From Escherichia phage vB_EcoM_EC001: a stretch of DNA of 64,000 bases. Below, piece by piece: positions 4,357 to 22,618 of this stretch. A program made the position numbers and the translations under genes. Positions within the stretch are counted from its first letter, which is position 1; the number at the start of each line of letters is the position of its first letter. The notes under the pieces were generated by a model. The model had not been told where the DNA came from. It searched no databases and saw only the letters and a program-made list of their open reading frames with translations. The stretch lies in sequence record MN445185.1; one strand, written 5' to 3'.

Positions 4357-4758
4357 ATGACTATCAAGAAGTTCTTACAAACAGTAGTAGTTCTGGCCGC
4401 ATGTGGTATCGCAGCAACTTATGCTTTCGATAAGCCAGACGTGACTGAATACGTATCAGCGGATTCCGATTACGGTATTGCACCGAATGAAAAACCGGAA
4501 CTGATGCGTGAGGTCGAACAGTTACAAATCTACAAACTGACGGATGGTAAGAACTGCACAGGGCTGGTTATCGCTGATAAGAAACTGAAAATGTATCAGC
4601 GGTTAATCGACATATCGTGCGATCAACCAAAAGTCACCTCGGTCAGTGTATCGCCGTTGGAATTGCCAGATCTGGTTGCTGTGAGTTTTTATCACAACGA
4701 TGTGCTCGTTGGTCGCATCACCCTCAATCGTGGAGATATCAAAAATGAAATGCAATAA
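4357..4758 (+). CDS. putative lipoprotein (133 aa)
   Basis: N-terminal signal peptide with lipobox-like VLAAC-G. Confidence 0.6.
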   Translation: MTIKKFLQTVVVLAACGIAATYAFDKPDVTEYVSADSDYGIAPNEKPELMREVEQLQIYKLTDGKNCTGLVIADKKLKMYQRLIDISCDQPKVTSVSVSPLELPDLVAVSFYHNDVLVGRITLNRGDIKNEMQ

Positions 4759-5236
4759 CGTTAATCGCCACTTGGCCAAAGTGGTGCTTTTTACTGTGCT
4801 GTTGATGGCACTTGTTGTTGGGCTACGGATTTCTAAGGCACACGCTGACGAATTCAGCGGGTTCCAGGGCAGTATTAACGGCAGCATTCCAGCATATACC
4901 CGCACCATCAATCTTAATGATAAGCCGTTCTGGTGCAATGCGCGTAAGCTGCTTAAGAAACAGTGTCGTGTAGTTGACATATCCTTCAACGGTCGTGTCG
5001 CTATCGTACACCGTCCGGGCGATAAAGATTGCCCAGGTGGTTGGTGGGGTGCAGTCGACCGTCACAACGGTGACGCGTTATGGCTTATCCCTAATCGTGA
5101 TGAACTATCAGTGGAGAAAATTTGCAGCAAAGATTTCAGGGCCGGTTTTGTACAGCGACCGGATACCAAAACTCTGGCCTCCATCGCTATGTACTACGGT
5201 ATGGAAACCATCAAAACAATCGACTATTCAGAATAA
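4745..5236 (+). CDS. putative secreted protein (163 aa)
   Basis: Start moved from track ORF 4700 to ATG 4745 (GGAGA SD); predicted signal peptide ending ...SKAHA; several Cys; overlaps upstream gene by 14 nt. Confidence 0.6.
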   Translation: MKCNNVNRHLAKVVLFTVLLMALVVGLRISKAHADEFSGFQGSINGSIPAYTRTINLNDKPFWCNARKLLKKQCRVVDISFNGRVAIVHRPGDKDCPGGWWGAVDRHNGDALWLIPNRDELSVEKICSKDFRAGFVQRPDTKTLASIAMYYGMETIKTIDYSE

Positions 5237-5258: not shown

Positions 5259-5669
5259 ATGAAACATTTTTTATTACCAGTTTTACTTGCTACTCTGGCC
5301 ATTAGCTTCTTCGCTCGCGCTGGAAGTATCGAGTTACCAAAAGTTGTTAACGATCACGAATACGGCGGACAGTTCTGGTGCCAGAACTCTGACGTACAAG
5401 GCGGTAGCTGCCAGATCGTTGCGATGTCCGATAACAACCGTTACCTGTTAGTGAAAACGATGGGCGGTGTCGCATGTGGCGACCCTGAATACGGGGTTAT
5501 TAACATGGCAACCGGGCAAGCCGAATCCATGAACTACAATGATAACCAAGCCTGTAGCGGTGAAGCCGTTGCTGAGTTTACACGCGACCCAGGCGACAAT
5601 GCCCTGACGGTTATCATGTACGACCCTACGATTAAGAAAAACGTAGGCATCAATAAACTCGACTTTTAA
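5259..5669 (+). CDS. putative secreted protein (136 aa)
   Basis: GAGGTG SD; N-terminal signal peptide (MKHFLLPVLLATLAISFFARA); Cys-containing mature part. Confidence 0.65.
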   Translation: MKHFLLPVLLATLAISFFARAGSIELPKVVNDHEYGGQFWCQNSDVQGGSCQIVAMSDNNRYLLVKTMGGVACGDPEYGVINMATGQAESMNYNDNQACSGEAVAEFTRDPGDNALTVIMYDPTIKKNVGINKLDF

Positions 5670-5682
5670 GTAAGGAAACAAC

Positions 5683-6066
5683 ATGCGTGGATTTATGGGT
5701 ATTATCGCGGCGGTGTTCTTGACCGCTTCCGCTTCAGCTACAACCAGCGTAGAAGATTTACTGCCAGGCACACCGTATCAGTACAACCCGCCTTCATTCG
5801 AAGTCTGTACTGGCGACGATGGCAGATGTGAAGAAGTCAGCCGTCACGACGAGTATATCCTGGTCCACGCAAAGGGCGAAGAAACTTGTCCTGCAGGTTA
5901 CTACTTTCTGTTGAACTCAAAGGCACAAGAGATTGTGCCGGTAGAGACAATAACGTGCGACCCGACGCTTCGCGCGTCGCTCGCTTACAATACGAAAACC
6001 AAACAGCGCCTCCTGGTTATTGAACAACAAGGCGAAGTGCGTGGTTCAATAGCGCTCGACCAGTAA
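5683..6066 (+). CDS. putative secreted protein (127 aa)
   Basis: AAGGA SD; signal peptide (…AAVFLTASASA); Cys-rich mature part. Confidence 0.65.
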   Translation: MRGFMGIIAAVFLTASASATTSVEDLLPGTPYQYNPPSFEVCTGDDGRCEEVSRHDEYILVHAKGEETCPAGYYFLLNSKAQEIVPVETITCDPTLRASLAYNTKTKQRLLVIEQQGEVRGSIALDQ

Positions 6067-6095
6067 CCGAAAAGTTTTCAGACAGATGTTATAAC

Positions 6096-6168
6096 GTGAG
6101 ATGACGACCCATCTCACTTTGGCCCTGCGGTGATTTCCCCAACACTTAGCCGCAGGGTCCTTTTTAAT
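6096..6168 (+). terminator. tandem hairpins, second followed by T-run
   Basis: GTGAGAT…ATCTCAC, then CCCTGCGG-(19-nt loop)-CCGCAGGG followed by TCCTTTTT, which runs into the TTAATCGAC motif. Confidence 0.55.
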
Positions 6169-6181
6169 CGACTATTACTCG
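6164..6181 (+). promoter_or_regulatory. conserved 5'-leader motif TTAATCGAC(C/T)ATTA
   Basis: TTAATCGACTATTACTCG ending ~19 nt before ATG 6196. Confidence 0.35.
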
Positions 6182-6195
6182 TAAGGATTAAGCAA

Positions 6196-6696
6196 ATGAA
6201 CATGAACATTCTCGACGATACCCGTTCTTCTTTCTTTACTCAGATGAACGTTAACCCTGAACGTACCCGTGCTATTCTTTCTACTGGTTGGAAGTTGAAG
6301 TTGTTAGGCGAGTTAACCCTCAATCGCACCGACTGGCCAGCAGAAGCAACCGTACTGATTAACAGCATCCACAGCGAATGGTTAGATGCTGCGTTGAATG
6401 CCCCACAGCTACGTCCGTACTACCGGATGCTTCACGCGGGATATGAAGTATACCGCAAAGGTTGGTACGATGCAGCCACTTATTGCAAAACCCCTGAAGG
6501 TCGTGAAGACAACACTGTCGACCACGTATTAGTGAATAACTTCTGGGGAGACCAAATTGAGGTCTTACAACTCTCTACCGGTGACCGTATTCCGGCCTGT
6601 GAGTTATTCGAAACTAACGCACAAATGTACGAACCGTATGCAATGATTCGTGGCCATAAGGTCCCAATCATTTCCCTTATGCATATGGGGCTGTAA
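6196..6696 (+). CDS. hypothetical protein (166 aa)
   Basis: Track ORF 6130..6696 starts inside a terminator hairpin; start moved to ATG 6196 (AAGGA SD), preceded by the TTAATCGACTATTA motif. Confidence 0.65.
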   Translation: MNMNILDDTRSSFFTQMNVNPERTRAILSTGWKLKLLGELTLNRTDWPAEATVLINSIHSEWLDAALNAPQLRPYYRMLHAGYEVYRKGWYDAATYCKTPEGREDNTVDHVLVNNFWGDQIEVLQLSTGDRIPACELFETNAQMYEPYAMIRGHKVPIISLMHMGL

Positions 6697-6702
6697 ATAC
6701 GA

Positions 6703-6732
6703 GAGGTAGCCTACGGGCTACCTTCTTTTTTT
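6703..6732 (+). terminator. intrinsic terminator
   Basis: AGGTAGCC-tacg-GGCTACCT then TCTTTTTTT. Confidence 0.75.
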
Positions 6733-6750
6733 GTTGAAGAAGGATTAAAC

Positions 6751-7377
6751 ATGAACGAGATTACCCTGATTCGTTTCATCGACGATATGGTGACGTGTCA
6801 GAAAGCGAATCGTCAGGATACCAAACTGCGTATCAATCTGATGGAAGAAGAGGTAGAAGGGTTTCTGGAATACCCGCGATTGGTGAAGTGGTTTAAAGAA
6901 GCACTGCCGCGTAGCTGGGAACAGCTAGAAGCGTGGTTTGCTCTACCTATTGCAGAACGTAATCCCAATAATACGATCTTCACCGGAACTACTGCATTAG
7001 ATTTGGCTGGTTCGGTGGAGCAACCTAAACGTTTAGTTTTCTTCTACGTCAATGGCGATTCAATAATGGCTGATACAGTTAACTGGATTTCTGATGAGTT
7101 AACTGTAAACACCACATTGGTCGGTAGCGCTGCTGATGCCTGGGTTGTTGGTCAGCACCAATCGCAGCCGTACGAAGAAATCAAAACCGGTTATTTAATC
7201 CCGATATATCTCGACGGCGTGGCACCGGGTCGTAGTGCCGAACTGTTCAAATTCCTGCTTACTGAAACGTTAAAGGTTGTCGATTCTGATGCTGGTCGGG
7301 CGTGGTATGAATTAACCAAAGAGCGCACCGACAGTTTCTGGGAATCACTCGGCCACCGTAAGTTTACTCCGCAATAA
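6751..7377 (+). CDS. hypothetical protein (208 aa)
   Basis: ORF between two intrinsic terminators; GAAGGA SD. Confidence 0.65.
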   Translation: MNEITLIRFIDDMVTCQKANRQDTKLRINLMEEEVEGFLEYPRLVKWFKEALPRSWEQLEAWFALPIAERNPNNTIFTGTTALDLAGSVEQPKRLVFFYVNGDSIMADTVNWISDELTVNTTLVGSAADAWVVGQHQSQPYEEIKTGYLIPIYLDGVAPGRSAELFKFLLTETLKVVDSDAGRAWYELTKERTDSFWESLGHRKFTPQ

Positions 7378-7388
7378 CTCTCCTCTCT

Positions 7389-7420
7389 GGAACCCTTCGG
7401 GGTTCCATTTCTTCTTTTTT
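7389..7420 (+). terminator. intrinsic terminator
   Basis: GGAACCC-ttcg-GGGTTCC then ATTTCTTCTTTTTT. Confidence 0.75.
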
Positions 7421-7440
7421 ACGCATGACCTTTTGGATAT

Positions 7441-7454
7441 GAACGACTAATACT
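7441..7454 (+). promoter_or_regulatory. conserved 5'-leader motif (variant GAACGACTAATACT)
   Basis: Same spacing (~19 nt) to ATG 7474 as other copies. Confidence 0.3.
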
Positions 7455-7473
7455 TTCTCATTAGAAGGCAAAC

Positions 7474-9984
7474 ATGCTCAAGGTCGAACGTATCATTTTG
7501 AAAGGATTTACCGGCATGGGGTTACATGAAATCGAAACGTTTGATTTCACCCTCAAGTCCACCGTTACCATCATCCTCGGCGGTAACGGCTGCGGTAAAA
7601 CAAGCCTCCTATCTGTTTTTCTCCCCATAGCTCCAGCAAAATCTGAATTCCGTGAAGGTGGTTCTTACACTAACTACGCGTTAGTCGGGGACGACCGTCT
7701 TAAGTTTGAAGTCCTGCGTCGTGGGTCTTCTCTGTCTTGTAGTATCTTCAACATCACTAAAGGTGTTTCCGTCGTAGACTCGGTAAACGCCAAAGTTTAC
7801 AACTCCATGGTGGAGCAATTAACCGGAATCACCAAAGAAATCAAAGAGTTAATTAATGGTGAGACCTTATTAACTGACGCCACTACCGAAGTTCGTCGTA
7901 AATGGTTTACGTTAATGTCAGAATCTGATCTGACGTACGTTGTTGGTTGTTATCGTCGTCTGCGTAAACTCGCTTCCAGTTTAAGTGGGGCCATTGAGCA
8001 CACCGGCCGTAAAATCGGTGAGGCAAAAATGCGCGTGGTGGACGATGAAGAAGATCGTGCACGTTTGGAAGTTCGTTTGAAAGAACTGGACGTTGAGCTT
8101 CAGGAACTAAACCGCACCATTGAAGCGAGACCCGGTTTAGATAACGCCGTTTCGGTTGATAGTATCCGGAAACGCATTGCTTCGTTGCAACCGGCTGTAA
8201 AACTCATTATGGAGCGTTATGGTGTTCTGCCTTCTGACGAACTGATTAACGAGTTTCAAAGTCGTGTAGTTGCCTGGCGTGAGCAAGCTGCCTCTGCTGA
8301 AACTGAATGCAACATGTACAATAAAGAGTTGTCACAGCTACTGGATGAGGAGTCGCGTCAAGCGTATCTGATGCGCAACCATACCGGTCTAAAACAAACA
8401 ATCGACAGCTTAAAACAGGAACTGGCAACGTTCCAACAGAACTGGATGTTCCCGGCTCTGTTTGAAGGTACCCGCATCGATGTGGATAGCATTCAGAACG
8501 CGTTAAACGATGCCTGTAACTGGAATTTACCGTTGTCCATGCATCTGGACCAGTTAAAGACAACAGAGCGCCTGGGAGCGTTAGAGAAGCGTTTACAGGG
8601 TATGGATTTAACCTCTGCGGGTCTATCTGAAAAGCTGCAACGTTGTGAGAATGTGCTACACGGTTTATACCACGACCGTCAACACTTCTTAGAAACTGCA
8701 GAAGTTGATTGTCCACAGTGTAACCACCGTTTCCGTCCTGGGATTCGTAAGTCGTTACCTGAAATTGAAAAGGCCATCAACGATAATGAAGGTTGGAAGA
8801 AGCAGCTGAAAGACGAAATGGATAGTCTTTTGCGTGACCGCAAAGAGATTGAAGAGGACGTCCGTAGCTTACGTACGATTCGCGAAATCGTCATGTCGTA
8901 TTCCAATCATCCCGTTGTCGGTTTGTTTTTCCGTAAACTGCAGGAGCTGGATATCTTCACCACGGCGCGGGATCGTTACGGTGCCATTGCACGTGCCTTT
9001 ACTGAAGAGTTAGATTCGGCCATGATGTATCTGCGTCAATCGGCGAAGCTTGCAACAGCGGAACGGGAATGGCAAGAGGCTGTTGCCGCAGTAGGTAACG
9101 TTGATGGTGCGCTGAGCCAGAAAATTGAACATATCCGTTCACAACTGGATGGGGCTAACCGTCGACTGATAGAATACCGCAGACAAGCCAATGAGCTGGA
9201 ACGCGAAACCACCCAACTGCAACAAACCAAAGAAGCAATCGAACGTTTCCAAAAGGGCTACGAACATCTGGTATCGGAAATGAACATCTCCGTTAACAAC
9301 GTCGTGGTTCGCGAGTTGTTAAACCGACGCGAAGCGAAGCTCGATGCGTATACTTCCGCTCGTGAACGGTTTCGTCAAATGGAAGGGGCTATTGCACGTT
9401 TAGCGGAACTGGAAAAAGAGCAAGCTGAATTGCTTAAAGAGCATCACCATGCCAGATTGATTATCAATGCCGTCTCACCCGAAAAAGGATTATTGCGTCG
9501 TTACTTTTATGCTGCGATTACCCGCATCATGGATTTAATGAATCGGTATATCGAAATGGTGTGGGCATATCCGATGCAGGTTATTCCATGCGATCTAACC
9601 GACGGGGATTTGGATTATACTTTCCCGGTACGATTAAAAGACCATGAAGAACTGGTGCCGGATGTGAAGAAAGGTTCGAAGGCACAGCGTATTATCTTTA
9701 ACATGATGTTTCGTTTAACGGCGTATAAAGCGCTTGGTTTACAAAACTATCCTTTGTTATTGGATGAACCCTCTGAAGGCATGGATGAGGAACACAAAAA
9801 TCGACTGGTCAACTTCATTAAATCGTTGGCGTTGTCGGGAGAGTTTTCTCAATTGCTGGTCGTTTCGCATGAAGCGGAAGTTCATTCTAAACTTAACGAA
9901 GCCACCTACTGTGTCGTGGAGCCAGAAGGTGTAACGCTTCCACCGGTTTATAACGAAGGGGTAATAATCAAATATGCATCATAA
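7474..9984 (+). CDS. Rad50/SbcC-like SMC-family ATPase (836 aa)
   Basis: N-terminal Walker A GGNGCGKTS; long predicted coiled-coil; central CPQC (zinc-hook-like); C-terminal Walker B/D-loop LLLDEPSEGMD and VVSHE. Assigned by motif architecture only. Confidence 0.75.
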   Translation: MLKVERIILKGFTGMGLHEIETFDFTLKSTVTIILGGNGCGKTSLLSVFLPIAPAKSEFREGGSYTNYALVGDDRLKFEVLRRGSSLSCSIFNITKGVSVVDSVNAKVYNSMVEQLTGITKEIKELINGETLLTDATTEVRRKWFTLMSESDLTYVVGCYRRLRKLASSLSGAIEHTGRKIGEAKMRVVDDEEDRARLEVRLKELDVELQELNRTIEARPGLDNAVSVDSIRKRIASLQPAVKLIMERYGVLPSDELINEFQSRVVAWREQAASAETECNMYNKELSQLLDEESRQAYLMRNHTGLKQTIDSLKQELATFQQNWMFPALFEGTRIDVDSIQNALNDACNWNLPLSMHLDQLKTTERLGALEKRLQGMDLTSAGLSEKLQRCENVLHGLYHDRQHFLETAEVDCPQCNHRFRPGIRKSLPEIEKAINDNEGWKKQLKDEMDSLLRDRKEIEEDVRSLRTIREIVMSYSNHPVVGLFFRKLQELDIFTTARDRYGAIARAFTEELDSAMMYLRQSAKLATAEREWQEAVAAVGNVDGALSQKIEHIRSQLDGANRRLIEYRRQANELERETTQLQQTKEAIERFQKGYEHLVSEMNISVNNVVVRELLNRREAKLDAYTSARERFRQMEGAIARLAELEKEQAELLKEHHHARLIINAVSPEKGLLRRYFYAAITRIMDLMNRYIEMVWAYPMQVIPCDLTDGDLDYTFPVRLKDHEELVPDVKKGSKAQRIIFNMMFRLTAYKALGLQNYPLLLDEPSEGMDEEHKNRLVNFIKSLALSGEFSQLLVVSHEAEVHSKLNEATYCVVEPEGVTLPPVYNEGVIIKYAS

Positions 9985-10165
9985 AGGTTGGCGCTTATGG
10001 GCTTGGTGGGGTTTTCAGTTCCTTCAGTTTGTTGTGATGGTACTGTACCTCTCCTTTTGTGCAACCGTAGTGGTTATCGCTGCGGTCGTTTATTTAGCTG
10101 CTGCTCTTAAAGAACGTCTGTTCGACACGCGTTGTGAGTGGCGAGATATAGGAGAACGGACATGA
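9974..10165 (+). CDS. small membrane protein (63 aa)
   Basis: Overlaps end of upstream gene; strongly hydrophobic core with charged C-terminus; weak SD. Confidence 0.4.
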   Translation: MHHKGWRLWAWWGFQFLQFVVMVLYLSFCATVVVIAAVVYLAAALKERLFDTRCEWRDIGERT

Positions 10166-10266
10166 TTGAAGGTATCGTATTAACCGGTATTGCACTGTGG
10201 TTGATTCGTGGTGCCTGGGGTTGGATTATCCGCACGAAAGGATGGGCATTCCATGGCAAGACGTAA
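10162..10266 (+). CDS. small membrane peptide (34 aa)
   Basis: ATGA overlap with upstream ORF; AGGAG 7 nt upstream; hydrophobic MIEGIVLTGIALWLIRGAWGWII…; below ORF-track size cutoff. Confidence 0.4.
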   Translation: MIEGIVLTGIALWLIRGAWGWIIRTKGWAFHGKT

Positions 10267-10444
10267 ACCTGGTCGTTTAAAGTTTTGGGCAGTTGTGGTA
10301 ATGCACACTGTGGTGCTACTCGGTATTTTCATGTCTCGCGCTACGCCTGCCTTTTGGGGCTTAGTTGTTTTGGTGTTCTTAGAAGGGGTTTACTTCGGTA
10401 ATCTGTGGAGCAAGCCCCCCGCGTTTAAGGGACCCGGCTTATGA
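10253..10444 (+). CDS. small membrane protein (63 aa)
   Basis: ATG inside track ORF 10208..10444; basic N-terminus then two hydrophobic stretches; overlaps previous peptide by 14 nt. Confidence 0.4.
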   Translation: MARRKPGRLKFWAVVVMHTVVLLGIFMSRATPAFWGLVVLVFLEGVYFGNLWSKPPAFKGPGL

Positions 10445-10572
10445 CAGTCGTGAATAGTGTCAACGCAGCCATGATTGCAACAGGTGCGTATGATGGTGCC
10501 ACCTGGACAGACCTTGGCATTACGATTATCATCTGTGCAATCGGAGCATTTCTGGCATCATGGTTATTTTAG
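10441..10572 (+). CDS. small membrane peptide (43 aa)
   Basis: ATGA overlap with upstream ORF; hydrophobic C-terminal half. Confidence 0.4.
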   Translation: MTVVNSVNAAMIATGAYDGATWTDLGITIIICAIGAFLASWLF

Positions 10573-10667
10573 TGAAGTGGGTTGGGTGTATCATCTGTAG
10601 CCTGGTACTAGGAGCAGGCGCATACGCCCTAGGCGCAATCCTTGCATTGACGCAAGGTTGGTTTTAA
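10572..10667 (+). CDS. possible small membrane peptide (31 aa, GTG start)
   Basis: GTG overlapping upstream stop (TAGTG); hydrophobic throughout; no SD, so weak. Confidence 0.25.
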   Translation: MKWVGCIICSLVLGAGAYALGAILALTQGWF

Positions 10668-11004
10668 CAGGAGGGTAATTACGAAGTGGGAGAAGTATCA
10701 TGTAACAGTGAAACAGTCTCTGATCCCGTGGTCGTGGGTTCAGGGGCGGCCGTGCCAACCCGGCGTATCGTTCTTTCGAGCGCGGGGATGGCTATAGGGT
10801 CTTCAAAGAACCTTCTAGCAGACATCGCGGAAGTCTGCGGGCCGGATGATTTTGCAGTTTCACGTACAGTCGGGGAAGACTGGCGTGGTAATCAGAAGCG
10901 CCATGAGCGAATGTGGCGACGGAAGGTTACCTCAGCATCGCAGCGTTTTCAACGACGTTGTTGATCAAAGACACGGTTCCGATAGAGAACTGGTCTTTAC
11001 CTGC

Positions 11005-11042
11005 AGCGGTATACACCGCTTAAGTTTACCGGTAAACTTAAG
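11005..11042. repeat. 16-bp inverted repeat abutting a perfect 24-bp palindrome
   Basis: AGCGGT-atac-ACCGCT (11005-11020) overlapping by 2 nt CTTAAGTTTACC|GGTAAACTTAAG (11019-11042); no T/A-run on either side; ~70 nt upstream of ATG 11111. Confidence 0.6.
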
Positions 11043-11110
11043 AAAACACAAACGCAATTCTTCGTTACTCGCTTTCATCGCAGGTGAAAGCTCACTTAGG
11101 AATTCAGCTC

Positions 11111-11599
11111 ATGGCCGAAATTGTCATTCTTTCCTCATCCTCAGATTTAACGGAAGCACAAAATAAACAGCTGTTGGGGCTGCATTATAAATTTCTGAAC
11201 CACCAACGTACCATACTCCATATCGAAAAAGGTGAGATTCCGAACCTCACTCTGGAGAAACTGTTGGCGGGGAACCGTGCTTGTGTTGCTCTGGAAGGGG
11301 GTACCCCTGTTGGTTACTGTTTGTATCGCGTAATCGCTGGGGTTCTGAAGATTCGTACGATGTTCGTGTCTGAAATGGCACGCCGTCGTAAAACGATGAC
11401 GCAGATTTTTGATGCGCTTGATGTGAATGAACGGTTCACCAGTGCGCATGGGGGAATATACGCTTGCCAGGAAGCTGGTATTGCGTTCTTTACCGCTCGC
11501 GGTTTTGACAAGACCGTCTCTACAGACGGACAATGGCTTGAATTTAAGAAGCAGGTTCCTGCGGAAGCAGATGAACCTTTAAGGACTGCGGTAGCGTAG
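11111..11599 (+). CDS. hypothetical protein, possibly GNAT-like acetyltransferase (162 aa)
   Basis: Start moved from track ORF 11084 (GTG) to ATG 11111; C-terminal ...AGIAFFTARGFDK resembles GNAT motif B; assignment weak. Confidence 0.5.
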   Translation: MAEIVILSSSSDLTEAQNKQLLGLHYKFLNHQRTILHIEKGEIPNLTLEKLLAGNRACVALEGGTPVGYCLYRVIAGVLKIRTMFVSEMARRRKTMTQIFDALDVNERFTSAHGGIYACQEAGIAFFTARGFDKTVSTDGQWLEFKKQVPAEADEPLRTAVA

Positions 11600-11627
11600 T
11601 CCTGTTTTAGCACTCCTTACGATTATG

Positions 11628-11653
11628 CCTCACTATGAGTGGGGTATTTTTTA
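11628..11653 (+). terminator. probable intrinsic terminator
   Basis: CCTCACT-atg-AGTGGGG (one G-U) then TATTTTTTA; a second weaker hairpin spans the upstream stop codon. Confidence 0.45.
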
Positions 11654-11670
11654 CGCGAGGAGTGCTATTT

Positions 11671-11880
11671 ATGTTTCACCGTCCTGGGTTTTCAGCTTTA
11701 AACACCGATGTCTGTTGGGCTGAGTACGAACGGGCGAAGGAGTTCTTACCCGTAAATCCAAAACACATCAACGTGGGTACTATCGGGCGTGTTGCGTTTG
11801 ATGATACTCCGCTGAGTACGTGTATTAAAGCAGCGCTTGGTACGCTGCCGGCGTCTATAGTTATTGAGGAATTAAAATGA
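11671..11880 (+). CDS. hypothetical protein (69 aa)
   Basis: Start moved to ATG 11671 with GAGGAG SD 10 nt upstream. Confidence 0.5.
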   Translation: MFHRPGFSALNTDVCWAEYERAKEFLPVNPKHINVGTIGRVAFDDTPLSTCIKAALGTLPASIVIEELK

Positions 11881-12395
11881 CGGACATTCGTGTTGACATA
11901 TATGGGGAAATTCATACCACGGCCGATCGTAATCGTGTTGAATGGGCGATCATCGATAACCATCGGAAAAAACCATACGATTTTTTACTGTGTGAAGAAC
12001 TGGGGCCGTATGAATATCACACTGCAAAAGCGCAAGATAAGGCATTAAAGGAGAAGATGTACTCTATTGGGCCCATGGGGCTGGAGTTGGCTAAGAAACT
12101 CGGCATCCCTGCTATTGGGATCGATGACTGGAGCGATGCAACCTACGCTAAAGATATCAAGGATAAAAAGGGAAGGGCTGTAAACTTTAGCCGTTCTTTT
12201 TATATTCGTGAAGCTAAAATGGTTGAAAAAATTAAAAAGTATATGGCAAAAGGACGTTGTGCTGTTATGCTCGGCGACTCACACTTGCGCACCACGAAAA
12301 CCAAAGAGCTTGGTGGTGCGTCCCTTATCTGGGAAACATTTAAGGATAATCCTGAAGTGAAGTTTCACAGGAGCCCTAAACGCGAGATTGATTAA
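11877..12395 (+). CDS. hypothetical protein (172 aa)
   Basis: ATGA overlap with upstream gene; GAGGA SD. Confidence 0.6.
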   Translation: MTDIRVDIYGEIHTTADRNRVEWAIIDNHRKKPYDFLLCEELGPYEYHTAKAQDKALKEKMYSIGPMGLELAKKLGIPAIGIDDWSDATYAKDIKDKKGRAVNFSRSFYIREAKMVEKIKKYMAKGRCAVMLGDSHLRTTKTKELGGASLIWETFKDNPEVKFHRSPKREID

Positions 12396-19642: not shown

Positions 19643-20362
19643 ATGACCTATCCTAAAATTCTGCCTGTTTTAACGCCCACCGTTGTTGTTGGGACGGACT
19701 TAGAGACCCTGGCTTTACGTCCAGATGCCTACATCTTAACGTTGGCAAACGTGGCATTCGATGTTCCGACAATGAAAATGATCGGTTCATGTTACCACAA
19801 AATCGACCCCAATGATGCAAAAGCAAAAGAAATCTTCTACATCGATCCACAAACGGTCGGTTATTGGGAAGGTAAAGGCGACCCCGAATACGCACCGAGC
19901 GAGAAAGCACGTATTGAAGCGTTTTCTGGGACCACACCACTGCCAGAAGCACTGTGGGCGGCCAAAAAATGGTTGGATGATCTGGGCAACGTGAAAATGG
20001 TTATCACCATGCGCGGTCCCGATTTCGATGCTCCAATTCTGATGAACGCATTTGCACAGTGCGATATCCCGCCGGGCAAGTACCGCAAGTTTTCTATTTT
20101 GGACTCTGACCGGACTGCAGAACGTATTGCATATGCGTTTGGCTTGGAACCTAACTGGCACGCAGAAGCCCACCACTGGACCCGTGGCAAAGAAGCGTAC
20201 GAGCATAACGCTAACTTTGATGCTGCGAAGGAAGCGTATTCTACGGCACGCATCTATCATTTGGCCCTGGTCGCGCGTACGTACGGCTTCGAACGCATGT
20301 TAGAAGCCCACCGCGAAATGTGCACAGGTGAATACATTCCACCGCAGTTGCGAGGAGAATAA
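19643..20362 (+). CDS. DEDDh-family 3'-5' exonuclease (239 aa)
   Basis: Exo I-like VVGTDLET (D-x-E), Exo II-like GPDFDAPILMNAF, Exo III-like HNANFDAAKEAY (H-x4-D). Confidence 0.65.
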   Translation: MTYPKILPVLTPTVVVGTDLETLALRPDAYILTLANVAFDVPTMKMIGSCYHKIDPNDAKAKEIFYIDPQTVGYWEGKGDPEYAPSEKARIEAFSGTTPLPEALWAAKKWLDDLGNVKMVITMRGPDFDAPILMNAFAQCDIPPGKYRKFSILDSDRTAERIAYAFGLEPNWHAEAHHWTRGKEAYEHNANFDAAKEAYSTARIYHLALVARTYGFERMLEAHREMCTGEYIPPQLRGE

Positions 20363-21876
20363 TGAAAGACGTCGACGTAGCGGTTATTTATACCGATGGT
20401 AGTCATACTGAGTCCCCGAAAGGTTCGGGGGCTGGTATTCATGGTTATTTATTCAACAACGGAGATTTGGAAGACAGTCAGGCTTATAGCCATCCGGGTG
20501 TTTCAGAACGGATTACCACTGTTGGATACAAAAAAGTGCCGCAGGATGTGAAGTGTCCGGAGTTGCCGGACACCGTTCAATTTGTCGACGCCGTTATTCC
20601 CGTTCCGAAAGAGTTCTACTCAGATGTGGGCGAGTTAATCGCCTTCATCACGTTGTTTGAGAACGCACCCTTCCGCGCGAAGAACTATATTATCTACGTG
20701 GATGCCAGTTATGTTGTAAACACTTTTAACGAGTGGATAGACGGCTGGCATAAACGTGGTTGGGTTCGTGCTGACGGTACTCCGCTGGCGAACAAAGAAC
20801 TTATTGTTCGTATCTGGGAAATCAAACAGCAGATGAAAAAAGAAGGACGGGGTGTTAAGGTTATCAAAATCAAAGGACACTCCGGCCACTACGGTAACGA
20901 CCGGGCGGACGAATTGGCTAGAAAAGGTTCAGCTATCACAGCGACCAACGACGGCGTTCCATATCAGCCGTACTGGTCGAAGGATGAGTTGCCTGCATCC
21001 GCGGAACCCGAGCCCATCGCCGCTGGGATGAACCTTGCGGCATATCCGCCGATTTGTACGGTTAAATATTGCTATCCGTTGGTGAACGAGGACCATCCTA
21101 CTGTAAAAGTGAAAGATGAAACTTTCTATTACATGTTTGGTGGCAACCATGCAAAGAACAAGGACGACTTGGTGTTTATTGGGAAAATGATTCCTGATGC
21201 ACACTTTTCCGTAATGTTCACTAAACAACCGTGGGATAACATCTACACGATTGTAAACAACCACGCCGCCCTGGCATGGAAAGATACACCGAAGATGCGG
21301 CAGTATGATCCAATCGGCGTTGTTAACAATGAGTTCGTTAAACGTAAGAAGTTCGTTGACGTGGCAGGTGATGGATTACCAGCAGACAAGATGCATTTCA
21401 GTGGAGAAGATTCCAACGTCTGGTTCTTTGAAGACCTGGCCATCTCCAGAATGCTTCGCCCACCCTTATTGTCGTACCGTGCGCTGGATATTCGTGACGA
21501 ACTCGCTACAACGTTGCGTGATGTTCTGCATCAGGAAAAGGGTTATGTCTTAAACGATATTACCGACTTGCTATTCGACGACAAAGGTAAACCTGTCAAG
21601 GAATACTACCGCAGCGTCGATAAGTCAATAACGTTAAAGATTGACTTTCCGATGGGTAAACGACCTGTCTCGGTTATTTTGACGCGTGGTATCGATATTC
21701 CATCGCGTACGGAAATCAACCGTATTAAAGAACCGGAAGGCCGTTATTACATCGCGGTGTGTCGTCCTGAAAAATACTACATCCGTTACTTCTTAATCTA
21801 TATCGGTAAAGAGTATCATGGGTTGTGGTGTGCGTATTACGCAAACCGTCGCATACTGCGAGAAGAAGAGGTGTAA
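20362..21876 (+). CDS. RNase H (type 1) domain fused to ~310-aa C-terminal domain of unknown function (504 aa)
   Basis: N-terminal ~190 aa align by eye to E. coli RNase HI catalytic motifs: VIYTDGS, ELIAF (Glu), IIYVDASYV (Asp), WHKRGW, KIKGHSGHYGNDRADELARKG. Confidence 0.85.
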   Translation: MKDVDVAVIYTDGSHTESPKGSGAGIHGYLFNNGDLEDSQAYSHPGVSERITTVGYKKVPQDVKCPELPDTVQFVDAVIPVPKEFYSDVGELIAFITLFENAPFRAKNYIIYVDASYVVNTFNEWIDGWHKRGWVRADGTPLANKELIVRIWEIKQQMKKEGRGVKVIKIKGHSGHYGNDRADELARKGSAITATNDGVPYQPYWSKDELPASAEPEPIAAGMNLAAYPPICTVKYCYPLVNEDHPTVKVKDETFYYMFGGNHAKNKDDLVFIGKMIPDAHFSVMFTKQPWDNIYTIVNNHAALAWKDTPKMRQYDPIGVVNNEFVKRKKFVDVAGDGLPADKMHFSGEDSNVWFFEDLAISRMLRPPLLSYRALDIRDELATTLRDVLHQEKGYVLNDITDLLFDDKGKPVKEYYRSVDKSITLKIDFPMGKRPVSVILTRGIDIPSRTEINRIKEPEGRYYIAVCRPEKYYIRYFLIYIGKEYHGLWCAYYANRRILREEEV

Positions 21877-21877
21877 C

Positions 21878-22618
21878 ATGTTGCGAGTCGTGAGTGAATC
21901 GCTCACGCTCCACACACAAAGTCTGATTAACTGTGTGGAGCAATACGGATGGATGTCATGGATGGCAACGAACCGTGAGTTCGGTGCTGCGCCCATGGAA
22001 GATTACGACGTGTTGTACAAGTGGGGATTTGAAGCGGCTTGTGATGTTGTGGCAGAGCTGGTTACTGAAACAATTGCGCGTTACAATGCAAGATGTGATG
22101 AACCGATGCCTAAACAAGTCCCGCCGCAAATACCTCCGCTACCGACAATCGATCGTGAGCAGTGTCGAATCTGGACAATGGAAGAGTTGTACGACGAACA
22201 CGTTAGAATGCTGAAACCGAACGAGCTAATAACCGGTGCGTTGAACTGGTTCTTACATCGTTTCTGGACAGAGTTGGTCGATGTGGCGGGTGACGAAGAT
22301 AATTGTTCTCAGGTTATTTGGTACGATCGAGCGATGTTTCATCGCAGTCTTAAAGATCGCAGTCTCTGCAACCTGTATATTGTTGACCCGTGTGAAGACA
22401 TTGTAAGGGTGGCAGAAGGTAACTCTTATTCGGACTTGGTGATGCCTGTGGTAGAAAAACCGATGGGTATTTTCCTGCAGGGAGACGCTTGGGTTTTAAC
22501 GGATGATATCTCGGGCTACCTGCTGGACCCGGATGACATTCACTCGGACGAACCTGACACCATCGAGTATTTTCACTTTACAGAACAGGCAGCACGCTTC
22601 TTGCATCTCTTAAAGTAA
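21878..22618 (+). CDS. hypothetical protein (246 aa)
   Basis: Start moved to ATG 21878 (GAGGTG SD, 1 nt after upstream stop). Confidence 0.6.
   Translation: MLRVVSESLTLHTQSLINCVEQYGWMSWMATNREFGAAPMEDYDVLYKWGFEAACDVVAELVTETIARYNARCDEPMPKQVPPQIPPLPTIDREQCRIWTMEELYDEHVRMLKPNELITGALNWFLHRFWTELVDVAGDEDNCSQVIWYDRAMFHRSLKDRSLCNLYIVDPCEDIVRVAEGNSYSDLVMPVVEKPMGIFLQGDAWVLTDDISGYLLDPDDIHSDEPDTIEYFHFTEQAARFLHLLK

Follow-up and report, generated by a model that had tools for sequence, protein, structure and literature searches.

Phage T4 encodes a Rad50/Mre11 pair, gp46/gp47, which is essential for recombination-dependent replication and for host DNA breakdown (PMC5105663 and established knowledge). For the jumbo phage SPN3US, gp186 (95.7 kDa; phiKZ homologue ORF165) was predicted to be an SbcC subunit, and an amber mutation showed that the phage requires it (Thomas et al. 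2016, J Virol, PMC5105663). In the same study, gp27 was named as the SbcD subunit, the gene pair was described as 'drastically separated' in SPN3US and phiKZ-like phages, and no BLASTP similarity was detected between T4 gp46 and gp186. The product of the next gene downstream, gp187, is a 63-residue protein with a predicted transmembrane domain that was considered reminiscent of T4 gp47.1, and a membrane role was raised for it by this analogy (PMC5105663). In phiKZ, gp165 is counted as an 'SbcC-like nuclease' of the core genome, and its knock-down gives a mild phenotype (PMC12571901), and orf165 carried no transposon insertions in transposon-insertion sequencing (PMC12676376). Here we analyzed a 64-kb stretch of Escherichia phage vB_EcoM_EC001 (MN445185.1; hereafter the window), in which the open reading frame (ORF) at 7474–9984 (+) very probably encodes the SbcC/Rad50 subunit of the phage's own Mre11–Rad50-type (SbcCD) complex. 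The gene, its family, its essentiality, the distant SbcD and the downstream transmembrane ORF were thus already described in 2016 for SPN3US; we compare the locus with these systems and trace its partner.

Results

The ATPase gene and its near relatives

The SbcC/Rad50-like ATPase gene at 7474–9984 (+) is an uninterrupted ORF of 836 codons beginning with ATG, and is the orthologue of SPN3US gp186 and phiKZ gp165. The encoded protein and gp186 (YP_009153480.1) are equal in length and identical at 831 of 836 residues, with five substitutions, and the gene neighbours of SbcC are alike in SPN3US and the window. PHIKZ165 aligned collinearly with the window protein from end to end (residues 1–833, 21.5% identity, E = 3e-49 in tblastn). 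A megablast search of positions 6000–12000 against phage genomes returned 42 records, led by Salmonella phages assigned to the genus Seoulvirus; across all 6 kb, DNA identity was 98.0% with JN03 and 96.2% with SPN3US, and 96–98% with SPN3US-type phages overall. The first and last kilobases of the window map to about 161,185 and 224,459 of the SPN3US genome (NC_027402.1). Because of this identity and the mapping of both ends, the window can be assigned at the sequence level to an SPN3US-like (Seoulvirus), phiKZ-related jumbo phage, of which it is a 64-kb stretch. For practical purposes, gp186 and the window gene can be treated as one gene in sister isolates.

Motifs and architecture of the ATPase

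Motif conservation was read from an alignment of 17 homologues with identity down to 42%. Near the N-terminus, the Walker A motif or P-loop, GGNGCGKT (residues 36–43; 7579–7602, +), aligns to the P-loop of Rad50, and its residues G36, G37, N38, G39, G41 and K42 are invariant. At the apex of the predicted coiled coil lies a zinc-hook-type CPQC motif (residues 413–416 of 836; 8710–8721, +), of which C413, P414 and C416 are invariant. Toward the C-terminus, a Walker B motif, LLLDE (761–765), is followed by a D-loop, SEGMD (767–771; together 9754–9786, +); the segment was aligned to LILDEPTPYLD of Rad50, and D764, E765, P766 and D771 are invariant. The H-loop or switch, S798–H799 (9865–9870, +), was aligned to VSHD of Rad50, both residues being invariant. 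A bipartite ABC head is therefore present, with Walker A in its N-terminal part and Walker B, D-loop and H-loop in its C-terminal part. At the position where Rad50 has the ABC signature LSGGE, the protein has GSKAQ (734–738; 9673–9687, +); G734, S735, A737 and Q738 are invariant in the family, and HMMER aligns KAQRII... to GGERIA... of Pyrococcus furiosus Rad50. The signature motif of gp186 was accepted as such in the earlier study (PMC5105663).

An AlphaFold2 model built on the homologue alignment (mean predicted local distance difference test score, pLDDT, 81.3) comprises an N-terminal beta/alpha head (1–128), helices (139–407), the CPQC hairpin, further helices (428–667) and a C-terminal head (674–836). 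The CPQC motif sits in a short beta hairpin between helices 367–407 and 428–476, and the two halves of the head are separated by a long antiparallel coiled coil of ~500–530 residues. Zinc binding and dimerization would be expected to occur through this hook. The invariant motifs, the AlphaFold2 model and PHROG 77 all agree with the Rad50/SbcC-like layout that a preliminary description had proposed for the 836-residue protein (Walker A, coiled coil, CPQC, Walker B/D-loop/H-loop).

Assignment to the Rad50/SbcC family

Searching PHROGs placed the protein in phrog_77, 'SbcC-like subunit of palindrome specific endonuclease', with E = 1.4e-95. Among solved structures, the best sequence match was P. 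furiosus Rad50, the single sequence reaching E = 9e-5 and the family profile E = 3e-6. The top Foldseek match of the AlphaFold2 model was Rad50 as well, from C. thermophilum (E = 2.8e-19), followed by matches to Smc5/6, condensin, MukB, Lamassu and JetC (E = 1e-13 to 1e-9). Template modelling (TM) scores were low in these Foldseek matches, as would be expected of a model with ~500 residues of flexible coiled coil. Pfam gave only generic matches below threshold, to SMC_N, AAA_15 and AAA_23, although PF02463 (SMC_N) is on record for most homologues. The preliminary description had held that its reading would fall if SMC-family profiles failed to match; matches were found both to PHROG 77 and, by family profile and by fold, to Rad50. 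Membership of the Rad50/SbcC family is thus supported, and the CPxC apex in place of an SMC hinge points to Rad50/SbcC specifically.

Search for a nuclease partner within the window

The preliminary description had also claimed that no Mre11/SbcD-type nuclease lies next to the gene. No Metallophos match was found with Pfam, at E up to 0.1 or 0.01, in the 20 flanking proteins (ten upstream and ten downstream), and PHROGs assigned the nine upstream neighbours to families of unknown function only. The families represented in the 20 flanks are phage families of unknown function, a GNAT acetyltransferase, a macro domain, an SLT transglycosylase and an Rv2179c-like exoribonuclease. A nuclease or phosphoesterase partner among the 20 flanking ORFs was rejected, as Pfam and PHROGs identified no Mre11-type protein there. 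Across the window, tblastn with SPN3US SbcD gave a best E of 0.13 and no SbcD. With filters off, all 521 six-frame segments of the whole window (stop to stop, at least 50 residues) were searched with a hidden Markov model (HMM) built from 45 phage SbcD homologues; the best E was 1.8. Motif regular expressions detected no GNH[DE] anywhere in the 64 kb. An SbcD hidden within the window was rejected by tblastn, the family HMM and the motif patterns, and the claim of non-adjacency, clean in the Pfam, tblastn and HMM searches, extends to the whole 64 kb.

The distant, probable partner gp27

The SbcD homologue of SPN3US, gp27 (YP_009153321.1), is encoded at 21,020–22,168 of NC_027402.1, outside the region covered by the window. 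The SPN3US SbcC gene lies at 168,900–171,410, at a distance of 146.7 kb from the gp27 gene, or of 90 kb if measured through the ends of the record. All close relatives encode such a homologue, and at a query coverage of at least 80% the gp27 gene was found in 35 related genomes. The protein belongs to PHROG 100, 'SbcD-like' (E = 8.5e-64). A PDB search with the single gp27 sequence gave no match, and the Mre11 link was seen only via a 45-sequence family profile and a structure model. The profile matched Thermotoga maritima Mre11/SbcD with E = 1.6e-12 over profile positions 10–306 (297 positions), and also matched P. furiosus Mre11 and E. coli SbcD. With the AlphaFold2 model of gp27 (pLDDT 91.6), the top 17 Foldseek matches were all Mre11/SbcD, the first being E. 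coli SbcD in the SbcCD head complex (7yzo_A, E = 2.1e-13), to which the model aligns over its full length.

All five phosphoesterase motifs could be located in gp27: D22-x-H24 (motif I), G57-D58-L-F-D61 (II), G97-T-P-S-H101-D102 (III), H180 (IV) and G211-H212-D-H214 (V). Across the 45 sequences, their residues are either invariant or conserved to 90% or more. As judged from profile and model, gp27 is confirmed as a genuine Mre11/SbcD homologue. Compared with canonical GNHD, motif III carries a two-residue insertion and has Ser where Mre11 has the metal-binding Asn.

The preliminary description had offered two options for the missing neighbour, a partner encoded elsewhere or an unrelated partner protein. 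The former is borne out by the distant gp27 of the relatives. Its statement that GNH[DE] does not occur in the neighbouring ORFs was correct, but the pattern fails as a detector: because motif III of the partner reads G-T-P-S-H-D, GNH[DE] would miss the partner even if it were in view.

Co-occurrence and separation of the two genes

By tblastn, SbcC-like genes were found in 288 phage records and SbcD-like genes in 289. Counted by genus as SbcC-like/SbcD-like, the numbers agree almost exactly; the records include Pseudomonas 81/81, Erwinia 62/62, Salmonella 24/24, Vibrio 22/23, Serratia 21/21, Aeromonas 19/19, Klebsiella 16/16 and Ralstonia 13/13. The distance between the genes was compared, by the shorter path, in the 19 records listed in both tables, and was at least about 75 kb in all 19. 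It amounts to ~91 kb across the record ends in SPLA3 (146 kb direct), 93 kb in SPAsTU, ~83 kb in CR5 (137 kb direct), 82 kb in RisingSun, 78 kb in Eowyn and about 72–75 kb in FLC4-4C; in the phiKZ-like 9Ps-7B it is 112 kb, and likewise ~112 kb in the phiKZ-like MRostami-2023c. The separation of SbcC and SbcD is ancient and found generally in this phage group. Non-adjacency reflects the scrambled gene order typical of the group, and the partner is not thereby missing.

Annotation of SbcC and SbcD in database records

In two records, MET_P1_082_240 (OQ383623.1, 9475–11985) and Proteus phage 7 (MT679221.1), the ATPase gene is labelled 'nuclease SbcCD subunit D'. This label is wrong for the 836-residue ATPase in both, the true type being the C/Rad50 subunit; MET_P1_082_240 gives an identical 'subunit D' label to its true SbcD gene. 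In the SPFM records (e.g., LR535911.1, LR535905.1 and LR535907.1), a 1.4-kb query aligns in 22–24 pieces, and the SbcC and SbcD proteins reach a BLASTP coverage of merely 4–25% despite strong HMMER scores. The fragmented alignments and low coverage together suggest many indel errors in the SPFM assemblies.

In SPLA3 (OR413581.1, 32682–33921), the SbcD gene appears split between two overlapping ORFs that differ in frame, one of 70 residues with motif I and one of 352 residues. The peptide VDVIREVLISCENTLDAFYIAGDLFDDSRH is found in both. The SbcD region spans 1,401 bp in SPLA3 and 1,310 bp in other records, in which the match falls into two pieces. A programmed frameshift was considered and rejected, as a duplication of ~91 bp was read from the two lengths (1,401 vs 1,310 bp); the SPLA3 record looks like it contains either such a duplication or an assembly artefact.

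Small ORFs downstream of the ATPase gene

The five tiny membrane peptides reported downstream in the preliminary description are present as five hydrophobic ORFs at 9974–10667, with lengths of 34–63 residues and best 19-residue Kyte–Doolittle means of 1.7–2.7. The first (9974–10165, +) encodes a 63-residue single-pass hydrophobic protein with a Kyte–Doolittle maximum of 2.7 and is annotated in SPN3US as gp187. The other four (10162–10266, 10253–10444, 10441–10572 and 10560–10667, all +) have overlapping starts and stops and Kyte–Doolittle maxima of 1.7–2.3. The overlap of the first tiny ORF with the SbcC stop measures 11 nt in the window and 1 nt in Parshik; in both Asesino and SPAsTU it is 17 nt. 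Erwinia phage Asesino (SbcC identity, 62%) has syntenic homologues of four of the five (E = 7e-4 to 2.5e-15), namely of gp187 (E = 7e-4) and of three of the other four (E = 5e-11, 2.5e-15 and 2e-4). At the corresponding place, five tiny ORFs are annotated in SPAsTU and three in Parshik, and CR5 has a single hydrophobic protein of 113 residues; the position of the cassette is conserved across Seoulvirus, Erskinevirus and Machinavirus. No comparable cassette was detectable downstream of the phiKZ SbcC orthologue. The five tiny ORFs are probably real genes, and their link to SbcC is positional only.

Between the last tiny ORF and the GNAT acetyltransferase gene lies a 416-nt gap (10668–11083) with a minimum free energy of -148.6, compared with -126.5 ± 5.3 in shuffled sequences (z = -4.19). 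No Rfam match was found in this gap. When it was aligned with SPN3US, SPAsTU, Asesino and Parshik, one conserved frame emerged, an ORF at 10686/10788–10964 (+), which corresponds to Parshik gp202 and part of Asesino gp211. The frame ends in EDWRGNQKRHERMWRRKVTSASQRFQRRC before the stop codon, and the relatives have in common the motif [DP]WRG[NS]Q ... QRR followed by the stop. SPN3US RefSeq annotates another frame in this region (gp076). A structured RNA was dropped as the primary reading of the gap, as the alignment of the four relatives shows a conserved small basic ORF. The gap likely holds a gene for a small basic protein, inconsistently annotated, followed by 3' hairpins.

Upstream region and other features

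A strong terminator-like GC hairpin with a T run, a pattern match only, was found at 7388–7407 (+), 67 nt upstream of the SbcC start, by consensus scan and in the sequence; a second strong hairpin of this kind was found by consensus scan at 6703–6724 (+). They come after genes of unknown function at 6751–7377 and 6130–6696, respectively. The region contains 15 terminator-like sites, compared with 6.6 ± 1.9 in shuffled sequences. The hairpin at 7388–7407 probably ends the preceding transcription unit, and SbcC appears to start a separate one. Further upstream, the adjacent ORFs of unknown function at 4700–5236 and 5259–5669 (both +) each match the PHROG family of the other (phrog_17072 and phrog_8968), and are probably tandem paralogues.

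On the downstream side, a protein with an Rv2179c-like 3'-5' exoribonuclease domain is encoded at 19643–20362 (+), 9.7 kb from SbcC (Pfam E = 1.2e-8). In SPN3US, the gene right after its counterpart is annotated 'ribonuclease', giving a nuclease pair ~10 kb downstream of SbcC; this pair is unrelated to Mre11.

Discussion

If the ORF at 7474–9984 is the SbcC/Rad50 subunit of an SbcCD complex, a mechanism can be proposed from the biology of Mre11–Rad50, SbcCD and T4 gp46/gp47. Two gp186 molecules would be joined through the hook and through ATP-engaged heads, and a gp27 dimer would bind the base of the coiled coil through its C-terminal helices (residues ~331–381). Driven by ATP, the gp186–gp27 complex would recognize and resect DNA ends or hairpins. 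Such resection may in turn feed into recombination-dependent replication and into the repair of the phage genome of 240 kb.

Several observations weigh against this reading. On the ATPase side, single-sequence matches in the PDB are weak (~1e-4) and limited to the P-loop and the Walker B-to-H-loop segments, Pfam SMC_N scores 27.8 bits against a curated cut-off of 40, and the ABC signature is degenerate, both glycines of LSGGE being replaced. On the nuclease side, Metallophos scores 15.1 bits for gp27 against a cut-off of 21.5, and motif III is invariant as G-T-P-S-H-D, aligning to G--NHD of T. maritima Mre11. The gp27 orthologue in the window's own phage is expected from relatives that are 96–98% identical; by the SPN3US map it would lie ~37 kb beyond the right end of the window, counting through the ends of the record, or ~139 kb ahead of its left end. 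The essentiality of gp27 was only 'inferred' in PMC5105663, and the physical complex of gp186 and gp27, together with its nuclease and ATPase activities, is predicted by analogy with the known systems.

One alternative takes the protein as an orphan SMC-like ATPase that makes no use of an Mre11/SbcD nuclease and works instead with the tiny transmembrane peptides, for membrane tethering or regulation, or with the uncharacterized upstream proteins. Under it, one would understand why no nuclease is recognizable in the flanking ORFs, why the first transmembrane ORF overlaps the SbcC stop in the window, Asesino, SPAsTU and Parshik, and why another genus retains four of the five peptides in the equivalent place; the parallel with T4 gp47.1 raised in PMC5105663 points the same way. 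We nevertheless regard this alternative as highly improbable, given that an Mre11/SbcD homologue accompanies the ATPase in essentially every genome that has the ATPase. Moreover, no such cassette could be detected behind the phiKZ orthologue, so the peptides cannot be a conserved core partner, and they could still be an accessory of SbcCD rather than an alternative to it. A related proposal keeps the nuclease and holds that SbcC is translationally coupled to the four to five transmembrane peptides, which would tether or gate the Mre11–Rad50 complex at a membrane, one instance being the vesicle stage early in infection by a nucleus-forming phage. We consider this improbable too, if a little less so; were it true, the cassette would be a lineage-specific accessory without a counterpart in cellular SbcCD.

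It is also conceivable that the ATPase belongs to another SMC class, such as RecN-like, Lamassu LmuB-like, Wadjet JetC-like or genome-condensing SMC proteins, and acts in DNA compaction or in conflict with host defence rather than in end resection. The Foldseek matches to Smc5/6, condensin, MukB, Lamassu and JetC, the generic character of the Pfam matches (SMC_N, AAA_15 and AAA_23) and the RecN-like annotation of one relative would fit this idea. Rad50, however, came out on top in both structure and sequence searches, the apex has an invariant CPxC hook and not an SMC hinge domain, and the ATPase co-occurs with an Mre11/SbcD homologue. Neither a kleisin nor an LmuA or JetABD-like partner was evident nearby when the flanks were searched with Pfam and PHROGs. 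We judge this the least probable of the readings considered, and retain the assignment to an SbcCD complex.

Jumbo phages of the phiKZ type routinely have their functionally paired genes scattered, and the lack of a neighbouring partner is therefore no evidence of a missing one. The divergence of both subunits is such that neither curated Pfam thresholds nor textbook motifs (GNHD and LSGGE) pick them up. Public annotations already carry SbcC and SbcD labels. The finding is ordinary for the phage group and of small weight as a discovery; the case serves as a calibration point.

Among the described systems, SPN3US gp186, named 'putative SMC domain-containing protein' or SbcC subunit, differs from the window protein by only five residues. 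The phiKZ protein gp165 is full-length and collinear like the window protein, but far more divergent at 21.5% identity. T4 gp46/gp47 is likewise a two-subunit phage complex; genes 46 and 47 of T4 are clustered, whereas SbcC and SbcD in SPN3US-type phages lie 90–147 kb apart. T4 gp46 (63.6 kDa) is also smaller than gp186 (95.7 kDa), its coiled coil being ~300 residues shorter (PMC5105663).

With E. coli SbcCD and archaeal and eukaryotic Mre11–Rad50, the phage ATPase has in common the ABC head, the coiled coil and the CxxC hook, and the phage nuclease homologue gp27 the five-motif phosphoesterase, the capping domain and the C-terminal helices. The phage proteins are 12–18% identical to the structures of these cellular complexes. 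Where cellular Rad50 has LSGGE and cellular Mre11 has GNHD, the phage proteins have GSKAQ and GTPSHD, respectively. Finally, E. coli sbcD and sbcC form one operon, whereas the phage pair is encoded separately.

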